A stretch of 64,000 bases of DNA from Eledone cirrhosa (taxonomy: Eukaryota), in NCBI GenBank assembly GCA_964016885.1, contig OZ024763.1, positions 25,110,001 to 25,174,000 on the forward strand, in the 5' to 3' direction. The notes under the pieces are model-generated. The model was not told where the DNA came from and did no database searches. It worked only from the letters and a program-made list of their open reading frames with translations. This document shows positions 10,769 to 23,125 of the stretch, one piece after another (position 1 is the stretch's first letter; each line of letters opens with the position of its first letter). Both the position numbers and the translations under genes were made by a program.

Positions 10769-13700
10769 GGTAAAGATAGACTTAACTAAGGTGGAGAGAG
10801 AGGTGCAGGTGGAGAGGTGTAGGTGGAGGTAGTGGTAAAGATAGACTTAACTAAGGTGGAGAGAGAGGTGCAGGTGGAGAGGTGTAGGTGGAGGTAGTGG
10901 TAAAGATAGACTTAACTAAGGTGGAGAGAGAGGTGCAGGTGGAGAGGTGTAGGTGGAGGTAGTGGTAAAGATAGACTTAACTAAGGTGGAGAGAGAGGTG
11001 CAGGTGGAGAGGTGTAGGTGGAGGTAGTGGTAAAGATAGACTTAACTAAGGTGGAGAGGGAGGTGCAGGTGGAGAGGTGTAGGTGGAGGTAGTGGTAAAG
11101 ATAGACTTAACTAAGGTGGAGAGAGAGGTGCAGGTGGAGAGGTGTAGGTGGAGGTAGTGGTAAAGATAGACTTAACTAAGGTGGAGAGAGAGGTGCAGGT
11201 GGAGAGGTGTAGGTGGAGGTAGTGGTAAAGATAGACTTAACTAAGGTGGAGAGGGAGGTGCAGGTGGAGAGGTGTAGGTGGAGGTAGTGGTAAAGATAGA
11301 CTTAACTAAGGTGGAGAGGGAGGTGCAGGTGGAGAGGTGTAGGTGGAGGTAGTGGTAAAGATAGACTTAACTAAGGTGGAGAGAGAGGTGCAGGTGGAGA
11401 GGTGTAGGTGGAGGTAGTGGTAAAGATAGACTTAACTAAGGTGGAGAGGGAGGTGCAGGTGGAGAGGTGTAGGTGGAGGTAGTGGTAAAGATAGACTTAA
11501 CTAAGGTGGAGAGAGAGGTGCAGGTGGAGAGGTGTAGGTGGAGGTAGTGGTAAAGATAGACTTAACTAAGGTGGAGAGAGAGGTGCAGGTGGAGAGGTGT
11601 AGGTGGAGGTAGTGGTAAAGATAGACTTAACTAAGGTGGAGAGGGAGGTGCAGGTGGAGAGGTGTAGGTGGAGGTAGTGGTAAAGATAGACTTAACTAAG
11701 GTGGAGAGAGAGGTGCAGGTGGAGAGGTGTAGGTGGAGGTAGTGGTAAAGATAGACTTAACTAAGGTGGAGAGGGAGGTGCAGGTGGAGAGGTGTAGGTG
11801 GAGGTAGTGGTAAAGATAGACTTAACTAAGGTGGAGAGAGAGGTGCAGGTGGAGAGGTGTAGGTGGAGGTAGTGGTAAAGATAGACTTAACTAAGGTGGA
11901 GAGAGAGGTGCAGGTGGAGAGGTGTAGGTGGAGGTAGTGGTAAAGATAGACTTAACTAAGGTGGAGAGAGAGGTGCAGGTGGAGAGGTGTAGGTGGAGGT
12001 AGTGGTAAAGATAGACTTAACTAAGGTGGAGAGAGAGGTGCAGGTGGAGAGGTGTAGGTGGAGGTAGTGGTAAAGATAGACTTAACTAAGGTGGAGAGAG
12101 AGGTGCAGGTGGAGAGGTGTAGGTGGAGGTAGTGGTAAAGATAGACTTAACTAAGGTGGAGAGGGAGGTGCAGGTGGAGAGGTGTAGGTGGAGGTAGTGG
12201 TAAAGATAGACTTAACTAAGGTGGAGAGAGAGGTGCAGGTGGAGAGGTGTAGGTGGAGGTAGTGGTAAAGATAGACTTAACTAAGGTGGAGAGAGAGGTG
12301 CAGGTGGAGAGGTGTAGGTGGAGGTAGTGGTAAAGATAGACTTAACTAAGGTGGAGAGGGAGGTGCAGGTGGAGAGGTGTAGGTGGAGGTAGTGGTAAAG
12401 ATAGACTTAACTAAGGTGGAGAGGGAGGTGCAGGTGGAGAGGTGTAGGTGGAGGTAGTGGTAAAGATAGACTTAACTAAGGTGGAGAGAGAGGTGCAGGT
12501 GGAGAGGTGTAGGTGGAGGTAGTGGTAAAGATAGACTTAACTAAGGTGGAGAGGGAGGTGCAGGTGGAGAGGTGTAGGTGGAGGTAGTGGTAAAGATAGA
12601 CTTAACTAAGGTGGAGAGAGAGGTGCAGGTGGAGAGGTGTAGGTGGAGGTAGTGGTAAAGATAGACTTAACTAAGGTGGAGAGAGAGGTGCAGGTGGAGA
12701 GGTGTAGGTGGAGGTAGTGGTAAAGATAGACTTAACTAAGGTGGAGAGGGAGGTGCAGGTGGAGAGGTGTAGGTGGAGGTAGTGGTAAAGATAGACTTAA
12801 CTAAGGTGGAGAGAGAGGTGCAGGTGGAGAGGTGTAGGTGGAGGTAGTGGTAAAGATAGACTTAACTAAGGTGGAGAGGGAGGTGCAGGTGGAGAGGTGT
12901 AGGTGGAGGTAGTGGTAAAGATAGACTTAACTAAGGTGGAGAGAGAGGTGCAGGTGGAGAGGTGTAGGTGGAGGTAGTGGTAAAGATAGACTTAACTAAG
13001 GTGGAGAGAGAGGTGCAGGTGGAGAGGTGTAGGTGGAGGTAGTGGTAAAGATAGACTTAACTAAGGTGGAGAGAGAGGTGCAGGTGGAGAGGTGTAGGTG
13101 GAGGTAGTGGTAAAGATAGACTTAACTAAGGTGGAGAGAGAGGTGGAGGTGGAGAGGTGTAGGTGGAGGTAGTGGTAAAGATAGACTTAACTAAGGTGGA
13201 GAGAGAGGTGCAGGTGGAGAGGTGTAGGTGGAGGTAGTGGTAAAGATAGACTTAACTAAGGTGGAGAGAGAGGTGGAGGTAGTGGTAAAGATAGACTTAA
13301 CTAAGGTGGAGAGGGAGGTGCAGGTGGAGAGGTGTAGGTGGAGGTAGTGGTAAAGATAGACTTAACTAAGGTGGAGAGAGAGGTGCGGGTGGAGAGGTGT
13401 AGGTGGAGGTAGTGGTAAAGATAGACTTAACTAAGGTGGAGAGGGAGGTGCAGGTGGAGAGGTGGAGGTAGTGGTAAAGATAGACTTAACTAAGGTGGAG
13501 AGAGAGGTGGAGGTAGTGGTAAAGATAGACTTAACTAAGGTGGAGAGGGAGGTGCAGGTGGAGAGGTGGAGGTAGTGGTAAAGATAGACTTAACTAAGGT
13601 GGAGAGAGAGGTGGAGGTGGAGAGGTGTAGGTGGAGGTAGTGGTAAAGATAGACTTAACTAAGGTGGAGAGAGAGGTGCAGGTGGAGAGGTGGAGGTAGT

Positions 13701-14879
13701 GGTAAAGATAGACTTAACTAAGGTGGAGAGAGAGGTGGAGGTGGAGAGGTGTAGGTGGAGGTAGTGGTAAAGATAGACTTAACTAAGGTGGAGAGAGAGG
13801 TGCAGGTGGAGAGGTGTAGGTGGAGGTAGTGGTAAAGATAGACTTAACTAAGGTGGAGAGAGAGGTGCAGGTGGAGAGGTGTAGGTGGAGGTAGTGGTAA
13901 AGATAGACTTAACTAAGGTGGAGAGGGAGGTGCAGGTGGAGAGGTGTAGGTGGAGGTAGTGGTAAAGATAGACTTAACTAAGGTGGAGAGAGAGGTGCGG
14001 GTGGAGAGGTGTAGGTGGAGGTAGTGGTAAAGATAGACTTAACTAAGGTGGAGAGGGAGGTGCAGGTGGAGAGGTGTAGGTGGAGGTAGTGGTAAAGATA
14101 GACTTAACTAAGGTGGAGAGAGAGGTGCAGGTGGAGAGGTGTAGGTGGAGGTAGTGGTAAAGATAGACTTAACTAAGGTGGAGAGAGAGGTGCAGGTGGA
14201 GAGGTGTAGGTGGAGGTAGTGGTAAAGATAGACTTAACTAAGGTGGAGAGAGAGGTGTAGGTGGAGGTAGTGGTAAAGATAGACTTAACTAAGGTGGAGA
14301 GAGAGGTGCAGGTGGAGAGGTGTAGGTGGAGGTAGTGGTAAAGATAGACTTAACTAAGGTGGAGAGAGAGGTGCGGGTGGAGAGGTGTAGGTGGAGGTAG
14401 TGGTAAAGATAGACTTAACTAAGGTGGAGAGGGAGGTGCAGGTGGAGAGGTGTAGGTGGAGGTAGTGGTAAAGATAGACTTAACTAAGGTGGAGAGAGAG
14501 GTGTAGGTGGAGGTAGTGGTAAAGATAGACTTAACTAAGGTGGAGAGAGAGGTGCAGGTGGAGAGGTGGAGGTAGTGGTAAAGATAGACTTAACTAAGGT
14601 GGAGAGGGAGGTGCAGGTGGAGAGGTGTAGGTGGAGGTAGTGGTAAAGATAGACTTAACTAAGGTGGAGAGAGAGGTGCAGGTGGAGAGGTGGAGGTAGT
14701 GGTAAAGATAGACTTAACTAAGGTGGAGAGGGAGGTGCAGGTGGAGAGGTGTAGGTGGAGGTAGTGGTAAAGATAGACTTAACTAAGGTGGAGAGAGAGG
14801 TGCAGGTGGAGAGGTGGAGGTAGTGGTAAAGATAGACTTAACTAAGGTGGAGAGGGAGGTGCAGGTGGAGAGGTGTAGG
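10769..14879 (+). repeat. 65-bp G-rich minisatellite, about 65 copies
   Basis: Unit taaagatagacttaactaaggtggagag(a/g)gaggtgcaggtggagaggtgtaggtggaggtagtgg, starting at 10771, 10836 and so on. Internally deleted units appear after about 13250. Confidence 0.95.
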
Positions 14880-15288
14880 AGGTGCTGGAGAGGTGGTGGA
14901 GGAGGTGGTGTATCTACCTAACTACATATCTATCTACATACCTACCTACCTATCTCTCTCTCTCTCTATCTATCTACCTATCTCTTTCTATATATCTATC
15001 TATCTACCTATCTCTCTCTATCTCTATTTATGTATCTATCTATTTACCTCTCTCTTAATCTAGCTGTCGTCTGTTCTACAGTGTGGATGTCATTCACTTC
15101 GCACAGAAGTTTTGTTCAAATTTATTGAGGAAATTTTGTGAGTTCAAACTTAATTTTGATACAATTGTGTAGCTTGACCCTCCGTCTGAACTGTCAGGCG
15201 GTGGGTCAGCTCAACTTTACCCCTCCTAGAGGTGAAAAACCTGTTTTAAAAAAAATTTTGTGTAAAAAATTTCAATCGTCTAACAGAA

Positions 15289-17166
15289 ATGTTAAACGCA
15301 GCGAACGAAAATAGTGGTGGGGGGACAGCGGTAAGAGTTGTAAGCTCGCACGCTTTAGTCCTCCCTTCCTTCCCAACTAACGTCATAGAGAAGGAAGGAA
15401 AAATGAAAATAAAAACGGACGAATCTGCGGAGGAAAAATTAAATGTCGAAAACAACGAAGAAAAAAAATTTGAAAAATTGCATGACAATACTAATAACAC
15501 AAACAAAGACACAACAAACAAAAAAATAACAGTTGAAAATAACATAACATCAGAAAACAAAGCAGACGACAAGATTTCATTTGCACAGAAAACAAAGAAA
15601 TCTTTGACTTATATAGCGGAAAACATTTCAGATGTGGTACGAAGGATCACGGACGCAAAACAATACATAAGTGAAGGTGAGAATGGTATTTTATTGGTAA
15701 AAATGCCTCAAGAATTCACGAAAGACATTGAAAGCCGAACGGTCAAGTTTCGGACCATCAACAACAGTACAAAAAAACCTGAACAGCCTTCTCAAGCAGA
15801 TATCAAAACAGTACTCGCAGAAGTACTGAATGAAACAACTTTCATAAGAAAAGACAGACTGTATGGAAGCCTAGCAATTATCATGAAGAACGAATCGGCG
15901 GCAAAAAAATGTGCTTTGTCACCGATTCGTTCGAAAAATTTCACCTTTTATCCATCTTATATGGGAAAAAAAACTCAACGCATATGGCTGGATGCAATGA
16001 TGCCAGATGTGGACTACTGCTGGCTCATAGCTGGCTTCATCGATCCAGTGAATGACAACGTGATTTCCATTGGGAAAACCACAGGCAATGCGTTCAGTGG
16101 AACAGGTATAGAGCTGGTAGTACAAATGAAGCCTGAACGCATCGCCCAAATACCCGACAGAATCCTATTAGAGGACCACGGGTATATAAACATTAGCGTG
16201 GAGGGGAGAAGGCCGTCCTGCCATATCTGTGCAGGCAGAGGGCACCTGAAGGCCGCTTGTCCCCAACTCAACAAAAAGAAAACCCTGCTACCAACACCAG
16301 CTCCACCACCACCATCACAACAGATAAACAAACAACAAAACTCAGTCCCACCCAACCCGTCCCTCAGTAACACCACAACACCACCACAACACAAACAGTC
16401 ACAACACATTACCCCAAAACAAAATACAGGCCCACCCAACCTCTCACTCAATAAAACAACACAACCACCGCAGACACAACACACAACACAGTCTAACATA
16501 GTGACATCCATCTCCCCCACAAAGAAAACCAACACGGAAACATTACCAGCAAACATACCTCTTCCCTCCAACACTGAAGATAACCCAACGAATTCGGAGG
16601 AAGAAACGGAGTCCTTCAGACAGATTAAAAGGAAAAAAAGAAAACATGTGCAAAACACACAAGGACAAACAACCCCCACCCAAATCGCAACACAATCTAA
16701 CAAAACAGAAAACACCCCTCCAGCAACAAACAAAACCAAACCTGCCCCTCCCCTCTTCGAAACACTCACACCATCGGAAAAAAAGACATTACACTATACT
16801 TACATCAACAGAAACAATAATAAATTAAATGAACTCATATACAATAATCCTTCGGTACAAACCGAAGGTGTAAACTTTGTTTCATCAGAAAACCACCCAC
16901 ATTTAAAACTAATAAAAATCCCAATGAACCTCTACCAAAAACTAAAAAAGGATTTTAAGGAGGACGTAGGACCACCCTCTGTCAAACCCATAAACCGCGT
17001 CCTACTAAAAAGCTTTCCCCCTCCCCTTCCCCTCCCCAACACAACTCCAAACACCCCAACCCCACCACACACCGACGACCCCACACCACCACAAGACACC
17101 CCTTCACCCAACACCCCCGACCCCATGGAAGTCGTGCAACCCGAACCCCGGGAAGCGGAAAGGTAG
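15289..17166 (+). CDS. ORF1 (gag-like nucleic-acid-binding protein) of the Tx1-like element, 625 aa
   Basis: Intact ORF with a CCHC knuckle CHICAGRGHLKAAC and a Pro/Thr/Gln-rich C-terminal half, ending 33 nt upstream of ORF2. Confidence 0.85.
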   Translation: MLNAANENSGGGTAVRVVSSHALVLPSFPTNVIEKEGKMKIKTDESAEEKLNVENNEEKKFEKLHDNTNNTNKDTTNKKITVENNITSENKADDKISFAQKTKKSLTYIAENISDVVRRITDAKQYISEGENGILLVKMPQEFTKDIESRTVKFRTINNSTKKPEQPSQADIKTVLAEVLNETTFIRKDRLYGSLAIIMKNESAAKKCALSPIRSKNFTFYPSYMGKKTQRIWLDAMMPDVDYCWLIAGFIDPVNDNVISIGKTTGNAFSGTGIELVVQMKPERIAQIPDRILLEDHGYINISVEGRRPSCHICAGRGHLKAACPQLNKKKTLLPTPAPPPPSQQINKQQNSVPPNPSLSNTTTPPQHKQSQHITPKQNTGPPNLSLNKTTQPPQTQHTTQSNIVTSISPTKKTNTETLPANIPLPSNTEDNPTNSEEETESFRQIKRKKRKHVQNTQGQTTPTQIATQSNKTENTPPATNKTKPAPPLFETLTPSEKKTLHYTYINRNNNKLNELIYNNPSVQTEGVNFVSSENHPHLKLIKIPMNLYQKLKKDFKEDVGPPSVKPINRVLLKSFPPPLPLPNTTPNTPTPPHTDDPTPPQDTPSPNTPDPMEVVQPEPREAER

Positions 17167-17199
17167 GTCTCTACACTCTCCTTTGGCTCTGCCGCCCAC

Positions 17200-20100
17200 A
17201 TGGATGTGTTAAGAGTAGGATGTTTGAATGCACGTGGCCTGGGCTCAACTTGGAAGCAAGCAAAGCTTCTAAATGACCTCAGGTCATGTAGTATAAATGT
17301 AATGGTTATCTGTGAGACTCGAATCAGCGTCATGCGGCAGCTGGCCCCCACCTTCGATGACTTTGAGGTGCATGCATCTCTCTGTCAACCTGGAGGTGGG
17401 GGTGGGGTTGTCGTGCTGATGCAAAAACACCTGGGTCTTGCCGTACAGGTTGTGCACTCGGACCCGGAGGGTCGTTTGTTGGTGCTAGACGTTGGCAGTA
17501 GTGAAAGTGCGGCCTTGAGACTGGTCGCCGTCTACTCCCCTTTCGGAGCTGAACGGCCCGACTTCTTCCAGCGTTTGGAGACTTTTCTGGGAACGTCGCG
17601 TTCCCTGCTTCTAGCGGGGGATTGGAATGACATCCTAGATGCACGTTGGGACTATGCAGGAGCATGTCCTAATAGAGGGGGGGTGTAACAGCCTCAAGGG
17701 GTTACTCGACCGTTTTAACTTGGTCGATAGATATCGACTAGATTTTCCAACTGTGCCTACCTGGACTTGGAGAAACCACAGTGGTCAATCTAGATCGTAC
17801 TTAGATAGATTCTTAGTTAGAAGTAAGGATAGGGACATATTAAGCTGTCCAGAAATGCGCACGGTTGGCTACACGGATCACAAATTAGTGACCTGCGTGG
17901 TCAATCTCGAGAAAACACATAGACAGGGTCCCGGTTACTGGAAACTTAATTTGTCTTTACCGGCAAAAGAGACTTACAGAAACCGGATTAGCAGATTAGT
18001 TAAGGAGAGGTTGACGGGTGCAATCGTCAACAACCGATGGTGGGCATCTCTCAAAAGAGAGATTAGAACAGAATCAATAAGTTATAGCAAGATGTTAGCT
18101 GCCAATAGGAATAGAAACGAGAAAGAATTAACAGGTAAATTAGAAGAGGCAATCAAGAGCGAAGATGTGGCCAGAGTGCTGGCATCGAGGACGGCCTTGA
18201 ACCAGTTTTTCGATGCAAAGCATGAAGGCTGCGTCATTCGAAGTAAAATACGTGCTCTAGGTAATGAGGGGGCCAAAGCCGTTGGATGGGCCCGCGTGAC
18301 AGAAGCTAAAAGTGGAAATCGATCCACCATCCGGTCGTTGCAAGACGAAGATGGACGAGTGATCCGGGAGCCTAAGCAGATGTGCGAGGCCTTTCAAAAG
18401 CACTTTGCCCGATTGTTCGGGGGAGGCGAGGGTCCGGGCCGGGGCGTGGATTTCGGTCCATACCTCGACGGCCTGCCGCGTCTCTCGAACAAAGAGGCGG
18501 AGTCCTGCGAGGGACCAATCTCGGCTGATGAGATCGGAGATGCGCTGAGCCAATGCAGCAGACGCAAATCTCCAGGTCTCGATGGTATACCTTACGAACT
18601 TTATTTAGCAATGCCGGTCTTCTTCTCCGAACTCCTCGAAGCGGTCTACTGCAATTGGCAGCAGAACGGGAGAATTCCTTGTTCTGTAGCCAAGGGCGTA
18701 GTCACGCTGGTGAGGAAGGACGAGAACAAGGGGGATAGTATAAATAATTTTCGGCCCATAACCCTGCTAAACACAGAGTTAAAGATTTTGGCCAAGGTGT
18801 TAGCAAAGAGGTTGGCGCTTGTCGTGGGTGGCCTGGTGGGAGATGCGCAGACATGTGCTATCCCATCCAGGTCCATTCACGATAACCTCCACCTCATGCG
18901 ATACATCATAGAGAGGGTTGGCAACAAACCCGGCTTCGGTGGGGCCCTGATCAACTTGGATCAGTCTAAGGCCTTCGATAGGGTCGACCATGGTTACCTG
19001 GATGCGGTGCTAGCGGCGGCTGGGTTCGGTCCTGTTTTCAGAGGCTGGATCACTGCCCTACATAGCAACCACATCTGTTCTAGGATCAAGGTGAACGGCT
19101 ACCTTTCGAAGCCGTTCGAAATCACACGATCCATTCGACAGGGGTGCCCTCTCTCCTCCCTTCTGTACGTATTGACTCTCGAGCCTTTACTGAGGAAGTT
19201 GGAGTTGTTGCAGGGTATCCCCCTGGAACCAGGATTGAGCAAAGCGGTGTCGGCCTACGCCGATGACGTAACAGTAATGGTATCAACCGACTCGGAGATC
19301 GAGGCGATCGGTACCTTACTGGAGGAGTACGAAAGGTTGTCAGGAGCGAAACTGAACCGGGAAAAATCCATCGGGCTGCAACTCGGAACGTGGAGAGGCA
19401 GACCGATGCCTCCCGATGGTGTCGTCGGACACTGGACGGAGGGCCCGGTAAAGTTGCTTGGGGTCTGGTTTGGACCGGACCTCCAGGTGGAAAAGAACTG
19501 GAACGAGGTTACGAACAAGGTGTTTGCACTAACCCAGAAATGGGCCAAGTGTAAGCTGTCCCTAAAAGGCCGGGCGGAGGTGGCGAACATTTACATAGCG
19601 TCCGTCACTTACTACCGCCTGACTGTCGTGCCTTGCCCTAAGGAAACACTCACCACCATGGAACGCATGCTCTTCCAATTTCTTTGGAAGAAGCGTCCTC
19701 CTATGGTGAGAAGATCCATCTGCTGCCAACAACCTTCGAAAGGAGGGCTGGGGATGCCGTGGTTGATGATGCGTAGGCACGCATTAAGGCTACGGCACCT
19801 ACAGGTATTCCTCACCGGTCAACCGGTGTGGGCTCCGTTCGTGAAACGAGCCTTTCCGAGACTCGTCTCACTCACCGAGCTACAGTCCTGGGTCAAGCAA
19901 AGATCCGGAAAACTGGGAGACTGGCACACTGAGTGTGCTCAGGCGCTCAGGGCTCTCTGGCAAGCGGGCCGGGCCATCGGTGGAGAATCCACCTCATCAT
20001 TCTATAGAGGGCTGGTGGCTAGCAGGGGCGATGACACCCTTGGAGAGTCGCTGGACATGGAAGAAGACGAACTGGCCAGCCTGTTCGGTAGGACTTTCGG

Positions 20101-20638
20101 CCCAGGACCAATGGACAACTTCCAGAAGTCACTGGCCTGGCAGTGCTACCGAGGGGCTCTACCCGTTCGAGAGAGGCTCTACAGACACGGGCGCCCGGGC
20201 AGGGATCCCTCAAAAAAGATTTGCCCTAGATGCGTGCGTCACGAAGAAACCGTGGCGCACGCATTGGTGCAATGTCCGGGCGTGGCTGATCTGTGGGGCT
20301 ACGCCGAACAACTGCTGTCGCGGGTGGCGCCGATTAAATTGACAGCCGAGTCCGTGATGACAATCAAACCGCCTCCCCTCTTCACAAAGGAAGCAAAGGC
20401 GGTTTTTCTGTGCGTAATAGCCATGTTGAAAGAGGTTGTTTGGTGGACACGATTGAAAGGTCTGAGGTCAGGCAACTTCCTCTCTGGCCATAGTCTGGTC
20501 TACTTCTTCCGATATCACTTCGGAAGAAGGATAAGAATGGAGAGAGAGGTGCTTGGCCACAGGCAGTTTTATGAAAGGTGGGTGATAGTGGCGAGAATGG
20601 CTCGTGTAAATGGGCCTTCTCTGTATACCATCCTGTAG
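17200..20638 (+). CDS. ORF2: APE endonuclease, reverse transcriptase and C-terminal zinc finger; +1 frameshift at G7 run 17677-17683
   Basis: APE motifs LNARGL, ICETR, VYSP, AGDWN, SYLDRFLV, TDHKLV; Tx1/L1-type GPGYWKLN; RT motifs KSPGLDG, NFRPITLLN, DQSKAFDRV, RQGCPLS, AYADD; C-terminal CPRC..EETVAHALVQC. Deleting one G joins ORFs 17200-17688 and 17639-20638 (NRGG|CNSLKGLL). Confidence 0.9.
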
Positions 20639-20874
20639 GTAAAGAAGTAAAGGAGAGGGGGGCACCTTCTCCATGTGCTCCCCGGGCAAAGGATTGCACA
20701 CTTTTTCGGGGGTGTGTGCAACCCCCATCACGTCCCCTCCCTTTTGAGGTTATTTTCGATTATTTTCATGTTACACCCTTTTTACTCGATTATATGTAAA
20801 CTCCCCCTTTGTATTTGTCCCTTCTTTTTATGCCTTTATGGTAAATAAAGAAATCTATCTATTTACCTCTCTCT

Positions 20875-22102
20875 TCCAATTCCTTTGGAAGAGGCGGGCT
20901 CCTATGGTGAGGAGATCCATCTGCTGTCAACACCCTTCGAAAGGAGGGCTGGGGATGCCGTGGCTAATGATGCGTAAACACGCATTAAGGCTACGGCACC
21001 TCTACGTATTCCTCACCGGACAACCGGTGTGGGCCTCGTTTGTGAGACGAACCTTTCCCAGACTCGTCTCACTCACCGAGCTGCAATCCTGGGTCAAGCA
21101 AAGACCAAGAAAACTGGGCGCCTGTCACACTGAGTGTGCCCAGGCGCTCACCGCCCTCTGGCAGGCGGATCCGGTTATCAGTGGAGACTCCACCGCAACA
21201 TTCTATAGAGGGCTGGTACGCAGCAGGTGCGACGACGCCCTCGGAGAAGCCCTAGACATGGAGGAGGACGAACTGGCCAGCCTGTTCGGTAGGACATTCA
21301 GCCCGGGACCTATGGACAACTTCCAGAAGTCCCTGGCCTGGCAGTGCTACCGAGGGGCTTTACCCGTTCGAGAAAGGCTCTACAGACACGGGCGCCCGGG
21401 TAGGGACCCCGCCAAAAAGATCTGTCCCAGATGCGTGTGCGACGAGGAAACCGTTGCACACGCATTGGTACACTGCTCGGGCGTAGCCGATCTGTGGGGC
21501 TATGTCGAACAACTGCTGTCAAGGGTGGGACCGATCCGGTTGACCACCGAGTCTATTGTAATGATCAAGCCGCCTCCCCCCTTCAAAGATGAAGCAGAGG
21601 CGGTGTTTCTGTGCGTAATAGCCATGGCGAAAGAGGTTGTATGGTGGACGCGTCTGAAAGGACTGAGGTCAGGCACCTTTCTCTCTGGCCAACAACTGGT
21701 CCGTTTCTTCCGATATCATTTCGGAAGAAGGATCAGGATGGAGAGAGAGGTGCTGCACCCCAGCCGTTTCTATGAAAGATGGGTGAAAGTGGCGAGAATG
21801 GCCCGTGTGAATGGGCCTTCACTCTACATCAGACTATAGGTGAGGAAGATGAAAGACCAAGGGAGCACCCCTTTCTGTGCTCCTGAGGAGAAGGGTTGCA
21901 CACTTTTTTCGGGGGTGTGTGCGACCCCCCAAGGCGCCTCCTCTCTATTGAGGATTTTGTTATAAATTTTATTTTTTGTTATATCTTATTTTATTTTTAT
22001 ATTTTGTTATTGCCTCCTCCTTATTGAGGACGCCTTTGTGTGTAAACTCCCCCCTTTGTACTTGTCCCACTTTTGATGCCCTAGTGGCAAATAAAAGAAA
22101 CA
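20875..22102 (+). mobile_element. 5'-truncated second copy (diverged subfamily) of the same Tx1-like element
   Basis: ORF 20838-21839 aligns with the ORF2 C-terminus from FQFLWK onward with many substitutions. Its 3' UTR is similar and ends ggcaaataaaagaaac, followed by tatctatttacctctctct. Confidence 0.92.
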
Positions 22103-23125
22103 TATCTATTTACCTCTCTCTCTATCTCTATCTATCTCCCTATCTACCTATCTCTCTCTCTATATATATATTTATCTATCTACCTAACTCTCTCTCTATC
22201 TACCTATCTCTCTCAATCTCTATTTATTTATCTATCTATCTACCTACCTTTCTCTCTCTGTCTATCTACCTATCTACCTATCTCTCTATCTCTCTCTATC
22301 TATCTACCTATCTCTCTCTATCTACCTACCTATCTCTCTCTGTCTATCTACCTATCTCTCTCTATCTATCTACCTATCTCTATCTATCTACCTATCTCTC
22401 TCTATCTATCTACCTATCTCTCTCTGTCTATCTACCTATCTCTCTCTATCTATCTACCTATCTCTATCTATCTACCTACCTATCTCTCTCTGTCTATCTA
22501 CCTATCTACCTCTCTCTCTCTATCTATCTACCTATCTCTCTCTATCTACCTATCTCTCTCTGTCTATCTACCTATCTCTCTCTATCTACCTACCTATCTC
22601 TCTCTCTCTATCGACCTATCTCTCTCTGTCTATCTACCTATCTACCTATCTCTCTATCTCTCTCTATCTATCTACCTATCTCTCTCTATCTACCTACCTA
22701 TCTCTCTCTGTCTATCTACCTATCTCTCTCTATCTATCTACCTATCTCTATCTATCTACCTATCTCTCTCTATCTATCTACCTATCTCTCTCTGTCTACC
22801 TACCTATCTCTCTCTCTCTATCTACCTATCTCTCTCTATCTACCTACCTATCTCTCTCTGTCTATCTACCTATCTCTCTCTATCTACCTACCTATCTCTC
22901 TCTCTCTATCTACCTATCTCTCTCTGTCTATCTACCTATCTCTCTCTATCTACCTACCTATCTCTCTCTCTCTATCTACCTATCTCTCTCTGTCTATCTA
23001 CCTATCTACCTATCTCGCTCTATCTCTATTTATTTATCTATCTATCTACCTACCTTTCTCTCTCTGTCTATCTACCTATCAACCTGTCTCTCTCTCTATC
23101 CCTATTTATCTATCTATCTATCTAC

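Follow-up and report, generated by a model that had tools for sequence, protein, structure and literature searches.

Two diverged Tx1-like retrotransposons stacked in one microsatellite site of Eledone cirrhosa

A stretch of 64,000 nucleotides from the octopod Eledone cirrhosa (assembly GCA_964016885.1, contig OZ024763.1, positions 25,110,001 to 25,174,000 of the forward strand; hereafter the window, numbered from its first letter) contains two Tx1-like retrotransposons, E1 and E2, inserted one behind the other in a microsatellite. We propose, with a probability of about 0.7, that they are stacked because the endonuclease of their family has a preference for microsatellites of the (ATCT)n/(GATA)n type and met the same site twice. 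The three strings that precede, separate and follow the two elements are copies of a local variant of the repeat that was duplicated as the target site.

Three copies of one target string around two diverged elements

The 22-nucleotide string ATCTATCTATTTACCTCTCTCT lies at 15034–15055, where it forms the left target-site duplication, and an identical copy at 20853–20874 stands between, and is common to, E1 and E2. Its last 19 nucleotides are found again at 22103–22121, as the right target-site duplication of E2; strings and elements are all on the forward strand. The initial annotation had pointed to the same string before, between and after the elements, and string counts bear this out: the 19-mer occurs exactly three times on both strands of the window and not once in 100 shuffles. 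Shuffling is a weak control next to TATC/TC microsatellite flanks, so the 19-mers of the tracts themselves were also checked, and the target 19-mer was not among the 1,102 19-mers of the two flanking tracts. The 12-nucleotide core of the string is likewise confined to the three junctions in the window, as is ATCTATTTACC. Because the core is found at these places only and the 19-mer is absent from the tracts, the target string is more than a common microsatellite word, and the three-copy observation is confirmed as real. The host tracts themselves are of the TATC/TC type on the left (14910–15033) and of the TATC/TACC/TC type, about 1 kb long, on the right (22122–23137). The duplications measure 22 and 18–19 nucleotides and each begins, in fixed phase, at or adjoining ^ATCT; the final four nucleotides of the middle copy (CTCT) are also the letters that directly precede, in the element, the point at which E2 is truncated, a microhomology.

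E2 (20875–22102, 1.2 kb) is a 5'-truncated member of a diverged subfamily and comprises the last 320 codons of the second open reading frame (ORF2), still open, and a 3' untranslated region (UTR). Over 1,087 nucleotides E1 and E2 are 83% identical, and their 3' UTRs have diverged. Differences fall mainly at third codon positions (32/25/90 at the three positions), with dS of 0.50, dN of 0.09 and dN/dS of 0.19; E1 and E2 therefore diverged as functioning lineages, that is, as separate active lineages under purifying selection. Since they diverged in this way while the spacers are identical, a local duplication is untenable. The pair is thus not a simple tandem duplication, and the three target copies together with the diverged subfamilies uphold the earlier proposal of two independent insertions at one site. 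The 64-kb window holds no further copy of the element besides E1 and E2.

Flanks of other copies and the preferred target

Four sequencing runs (X4, X10, X11 and X13, of 15 listed) were mapped on positions 15000–22160 at 85% likeness. X13 consists of restriction-site-associated DNA (RAD) reads of another sample, of which 150,062 mapped, and X4 consists of contigs. Past the 3' end of E1, X13 reads carried C at 20863 in 298 of 301 cases (27 starts) and T at 20866 in 293 of 294 (26 starts). The X4 contigs agreed, with 13,652 of a depth of 14,470 (94%, 22 contigs) at the first position and 14,325 of 14,381 (99.6%, 26 contigs) at the second. Provided that the two letters between these positions are unchanged, the two changes turn the window's variant into a pure ATCT repeat. 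Runs X10 and X11 had zero depth in the bin that contains both positions, and therefore plain microsatellite reads were not mapped to it. On the 5' side, a repeat-like T at 15047 was present in 185 of 187 X13 reads (32 starts), 171 of them in one orientation, as expected from an AATT site at 15119; 42 X4 contigs also extend to this position and show T. As background, ATCTATCTAT occurs 9 times in the remaining 57 kb of the window, or 8e-5 per position.

The preferred target of the family is likely (ATCT)n/(GATA)n and not (TC)n, and the TTTACC and TC part of the target string is specific to the window locus. The initial annotation had named a TATC/TC variant as the target; its site-preferring insertion stands, while the target of the family is to be read as (ATCT)n/(GATA)n. 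The flank is best taken as target and not as a templated tail, because in the window both subfamilies show the local variant, which is also present upstream of E1. A second stack was found among the 15 joints listed of 273: a 3' end is followed by ATCTATCTATCT and by a copy truncated at 21320 (joint 20862–21320), in 245 reads with two read starts, and therefore at one locus. Its duplication is 12–14 nucleotides long and begins at ^ATCT. A further joint (15041–21624, 120 reads) was dropped; it ends at a CATG restriction site and may be a library chimera.

Target-primed reverse transcription is the established mechanism behind the steps that we propose. The ORF2 endonuclease would nick the bottom strand at or adjoining 5'-AGAT/A (top strand ^ATCT), and the freed 3'-OH would prime reverse transcription from the A-rich end of the element RNA. 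Cutting of the top strand 18–22 nucleotides downstream, near the change from (ATCT) to (CT), followed by repair, would give the duplication. Each insertion would regenerate the target on both sides, and a second subfamily could in this way enter the same site, the first nicks of the two insertions lying 3–4 nucleotides apart (about one ATCT unit). Both orders of insertion fit, with a slight edge (about 60:40) for E1 first and E2 afterwards into the downstream target copy: in that order the two second cuts meet the same native flank, which is the more parsimonious course.

The share of E1-type 3'-end reads with an ATCT flank is about 21–69% (90 to 301 reads against a depth of 435 at 20802; reads, not loci), above the 20% for one sequence type that serves in PMC4494074 as the criterion for a sequence-specific family. 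For the flanks of other copies, on which the initial annotation had made its reading depend, nearly all reads that continue past the 3' end thus agree, and the share among all copies is bracketed.

Several points count against a GATA-targeting family. The flank counts are of reads and not of loci, and the lower bound of 21% is marginal; reads with unrelated flanks were clipped and fall outside the counts (2,532 loose-end rows), hence the mere bracketing of the ATCT share. Positions 20863 and 20866 are the only two junction positions among the 40 rows listed of 1,472, and E2-type 3' flanks were masked as repeat in the mapping. The signal at 15047 is possibly in part plain microsatellite, given two such reads in the element-free run X10. 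The Hi-C runs X10 and X11 showed no element, only 52 and 28 of their reads mapping, at low-complexity parts, and are thus uninformative. Lastly, six array ends of a sister lineage, described below, all lie in non-microsatellite DNA, and GATA targeting is therefore not lineage-wide.

Structure and relatives of the E1 family

E1 (15056–20852, 5,797 nucleotides) is an apparently full-length non-LTR (long terminal repeat) retrotransposon of the long interspersed nuclear element (LINE) type, and all 30 bins of it, 5' end included, are covered by reads of other copies. It was rightly described as near-intact: ORF1 (15289–17166, 625 amino acids) is open, and ORF2 (17200–20638) has one frameshift, in a G run near 17677–17688, which splits the endonuclease. 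A shorter G run was present at this site in 40 of 252 reads of other copies (9 starts). The 3' UTR (20639–20852) ends in AATAAAGAA without a poly(A) run.

Profiles and motifs identify in ORF2 an apurinic/apyrimidinic (APE)-type endonuclease, a reverse transcriptase (RT) and a C-terminal zinc-binding motif. The endonuclease matched PF03372 below the cut-off (E 2e-4), and a profile built with relatives gave a match to the L1/LTx endonuclease at E 1e-40. The catalytic motifs N, E, Y, D-x-N, D and H are all found in E1 and align with those of the L1 and LTx endonucleases. ORF2 also contains the YADD motif of reverse transcriptases and matches PF00078 (E 5e-27) and PF13966 (E 6e-6); its best match among solved structures is L1 ORF2p (E 5e-45), with R2 at 1e-20. 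ORF1 comprises, in order, a likely RNA-binding region, a CCHC zinc knuckle (C-x2-C-x4-H-x4-C) and a long low-complexity tail. A Pfam search found no zinc knuckle domain in E1 ORF1, and the Atlas placed the knuckle with zf-CCHC clusters at 0.92. An AlphaFold model of ORF1 made without an alignment had a pLDDT (predicted local distance difference test) of 29.5, and the protein is 27% identical to ORF1 of a sister family (E 4e-14). An ORF1 with a CCHC zinc knuckle is a typical Tx1 trait; together with the APE endonuclease and an RT of the L1 group, it agrees with the earlier assignment of E1 as Tx1-like.

The 5' UTR of E1 contains a hairpin closed by UGACCC/GGGUCA (15171–15211, folding z -4.6). 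A similar UGACCC/GGGUCA hairpin lies in the 5' UTR of the sister family (L003:3355–3405, z -2.7); the two families are only 41% identical in ORF2. The 5' UTR hairpins had no Rfam match, and an Rfam search of the window and the sister-family stretch L003 found no ribozyme. At the ORF1 stop of E1 (17160–17168) we observed a splice-donor-like word (AG|GTRAGT or AG|GTAGGT), which was also found at the ORF1 stop in seven of eight sister units checked (e.g. L003:5495–5505); words similar to a splice donor lie near the end of ORF2 as well. This word might serve an ORF1-only RNA or U1 binding.

The best named protein matches were from Argonauta hians (63% and 60%) and Octopus sinensis (43%), in line with the invertebrate host predicted by the initial annotation. 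Of 196 rows 109 were kept, and 48 of these went into an RT tree, with one long plant L1 branch as the root and without curated Repbase references. E1 grouped with Argonauta (100/100), and the next sister was the family 41% identical to it (100/100). Around this clade stands a group of invertebrate appearance (98/99), one member of which has its 3' end joined to U1 small nuclear RNA (snRNA), and a larger clade (100/97) also takes in two fish elements inserted in 5S rRNA and the Takifugu protein BAD04856. The tree points to a probable placement in Tx1, its outside rows being unlabelled and not separated by scores against L1 ORF2p. In the best tree E1 is not sister to BAD04856, and such a grouping was not rejected (approximately unbiased test, p 0.26); an independent origin of microsatellite targeting in E1's clade is therefore no more than possible. 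BAD04856 is presumably Kibi or Koshi, its species, Takifugu, alone having been confirmed.

The fish Tx1 elements, presumably Mutsu-like, have their 3' ends in 5S rRNA genes (L042:4422–4534; L043:2726–2844) and are contamination in metagenome-assembled genomes (MAGs) from gut. The Tx1-like element of locus L038, 32% identical to E1 ORF2, begins about 30 nucleotides past a complete U1 snRNA gene (3036–3232) and, at its A-rich 3' end, runs into a U1 copy near nucleotide 35 (9990–10170). From these junctions it is possibly a U1-targeting Tx1, in animal DNA within another MAG.

The sister family is animal DNA inside a bacterial MAG (uncultured Arenicella sp.), which accounts for 40 of 45 loci. This MAG, a species representative (L001–L037, L041, L045–L061), includes many contigs of head-to-tail arrays of Tx1-like LINEs, the units of which are full-length, mostly open, 6.4–6.9 kb long and of several subfamilies. 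The arrays are host contamination and a LINE-built satellite. With 40 of 74 candidates scored, 13 3' ends were found head-to-tail over 71 kb of one 91-kb contig. Units are joined by AATAAA and an 11–20-nucleotide spacer, which is array-specific and also stands ahead of truncated members. None of six array ends had a microsatellite, and at one upstream end 10 of 17 nucleotides agree with the spacer; the spacers may be duplications or element termini. Stacking is common to the lineage, and the GATA target is not. An ATC-like target remnant once suspected at a sister-array junction proved wrong: the array ends place the junction about 250 nucleotides further on, at non-microsatellite spacers. In the limpet Patella caerulea, related ORF2 proteins have consecutive locus tags (SNE40_004279–004307), a hint of a similar tandem array. 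Metagenome scans yielded 15 and 164 candidate stretches, none of which was confirmed as a relative; viral scans (0 of 94 candidates) and a pattern search (0) were likewise negative.

Alternative explanations and known systems

It is conceivable, though we consider it unlikely, that stacking reinforces itself, an element end and its duplicated target together attracting insertion more than an empty repeat does, with the result that occupied sites are hit again and arrays grow. Two stacked loci in a small sample (the window and the joint 20862–21320) are consistent with this, as are the sister arrays, with their 13 3' ends along 71 kb and truncated members after the same spacer, and the consecutive locus tags of the limpet relative. 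However, we estimate that chance alone would stack a few per cent of copies, given thousands of copies and about 160 ATCTATCTAT sites in each Mb; arrays can also lengthen by unequal crossover once a double insertion exists, according to the available text of PMC5932611, and the spacers of the sister arrays are possibly the 3' end of the element and not duplications.

An improbable explanation is that the ATCT run is a 3' tail belonging to the element, as in tail-bearing LINEs, and that copies of loose specificity pile up in repeat-rich DNA. Pure ATCT does follow the 3' end in nearly all reads aligning past it, and tandem repeat occupies more than half of the window. In the window, however, the variant of this locus, and not the pure repeat, follows both copies, which belong to two subfamilies; the target copy upstream of E1 is beyond what a templated tail could explain, and 5' flanks are repeat-like too. 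A single insertion followed by local tandem duplication, a one-event template switch or an assembly artefact is largely refuted and very improbable: head-to-tail order, the common spacer and a satellite-rich window, unequal crossover being frequent in satellites, would suit it, but the copies are 17% diverged, with dN/dS of 0.19 and unlike 3' UTRs, around identical target copies, the E1-type and E2-type subfamilies occur separately in other samples, and one event yields two target copies, not three.

Preference for (ATCT)n/(GATA)n microsatellites, the reading that we favour, has parallels in known systems. Kibi and Koshi of teleost fish target (TC)n and (TTC)n, and crocodilian Tx1 families sit in (TTCC)n/(TTTC)n, as stated in the accessible parts of PMC4494074 and PMC3812793. 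Like these, the E1 family is an APE-type LINE of the Tx1 kind in the pyrimidine-rich strand of a microsatellite, with a target duplication; unlike Kibi and Koshi, it occurs in an octopod and has (ATCT)n and not (TC)n or (TTC)n at its 3' flanks, the TC run being confined to the distal end of the duplication. Tandem SINEU-3 and Tx1-Mar insertions sandwich a duplication (PMC4494074, in part), double insertion is an established source of R1 arrays and transposable-element dimers (PMC5932611, in part), and Utopia occurs in tandem in U2 (PMC4640811, in part). The order target-element-target-element-target by sequential insertion, with unlike 5' truncations, is shared with SINEU-3, R1 and Utopia, whereas the target of E1 and E2 is a microsatellite variant and the copies belong to subfamilies 17% diverged. 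In the Tx1L element of Xenopus, the endonuclease alone is specific and its bB6-bB5 loop contacts the target, a sequence-specific APE endonuclease being the accepted basis of Tx1L targeting (PMC1950540, as excerpted). The bB6-bB5 hairpin loop can also be located in E1, where it has 9 residues between the anchors (the L1 length), against 11 in Tx1L and the sister family; the target of Tx1L is a DNA transposon, unlike that of the E1 family.

Octopus vulgaris has 13 recently active L1-Tx1 families with 421 insertions (PMC13282606, from the text available). Cephalopod annotations count L1-Tx1 families and, in the portions accessible, give no target sites (PMC13282606; PMC8967140); the family of E1 and E2 may be among those annotated. 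Among the papers listed by a literature search there was no Tx1 family targeting a GATA repeat, Repbase, which may list one, being outside its reach, and the GATA-repeat target is probably undescribed. Microsatellite targeting and tandem insertion around a common duplication have each been published already, and nothing is overturned here. GATA targeting would add the GATA/ATCT repeat, in a mollusc lineage, to the few microsatellites that serve as targets of APE-type retrotransposons, and would offer one way in which LINEs break up microsatellites and give rise to satellites in the genomes of cephalopods. The recognition of microsatellites by such endonucleases is described as poorly understood (PMC3812793, in the text at hand); the E1 family and its 41%-identical sister, with unlike targets and unlike hairpin loops, form a natural comparison pair. 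A bolder and rather doubtful extension is that an invertebrate Tx1 lineage re-targets its own sites and so builds satellites out of complete, active LINEs: the octopod branch would do so in GATA repeats (at a two-copy stage here) and the sister branch at other 11–20-nucleotide motifs (arrays of at least 13), the part exchanged for aiming being the hairpin loop of the endonuclease (9 residues against 11).

Tandem repeat makes up 54% of the window. A 65-bp G-rich satellite of 4.1 kb (10769–14879) ends 150 nucleotides to the left of the insertion site, and a 135-bp satellite extends over 8 kb (43803–51827). Two tandem 203-bp copies of a repeat resembling a short interspersed element (SINE), which we take to be similar to an octopus SINE, lie at 9508–9927.

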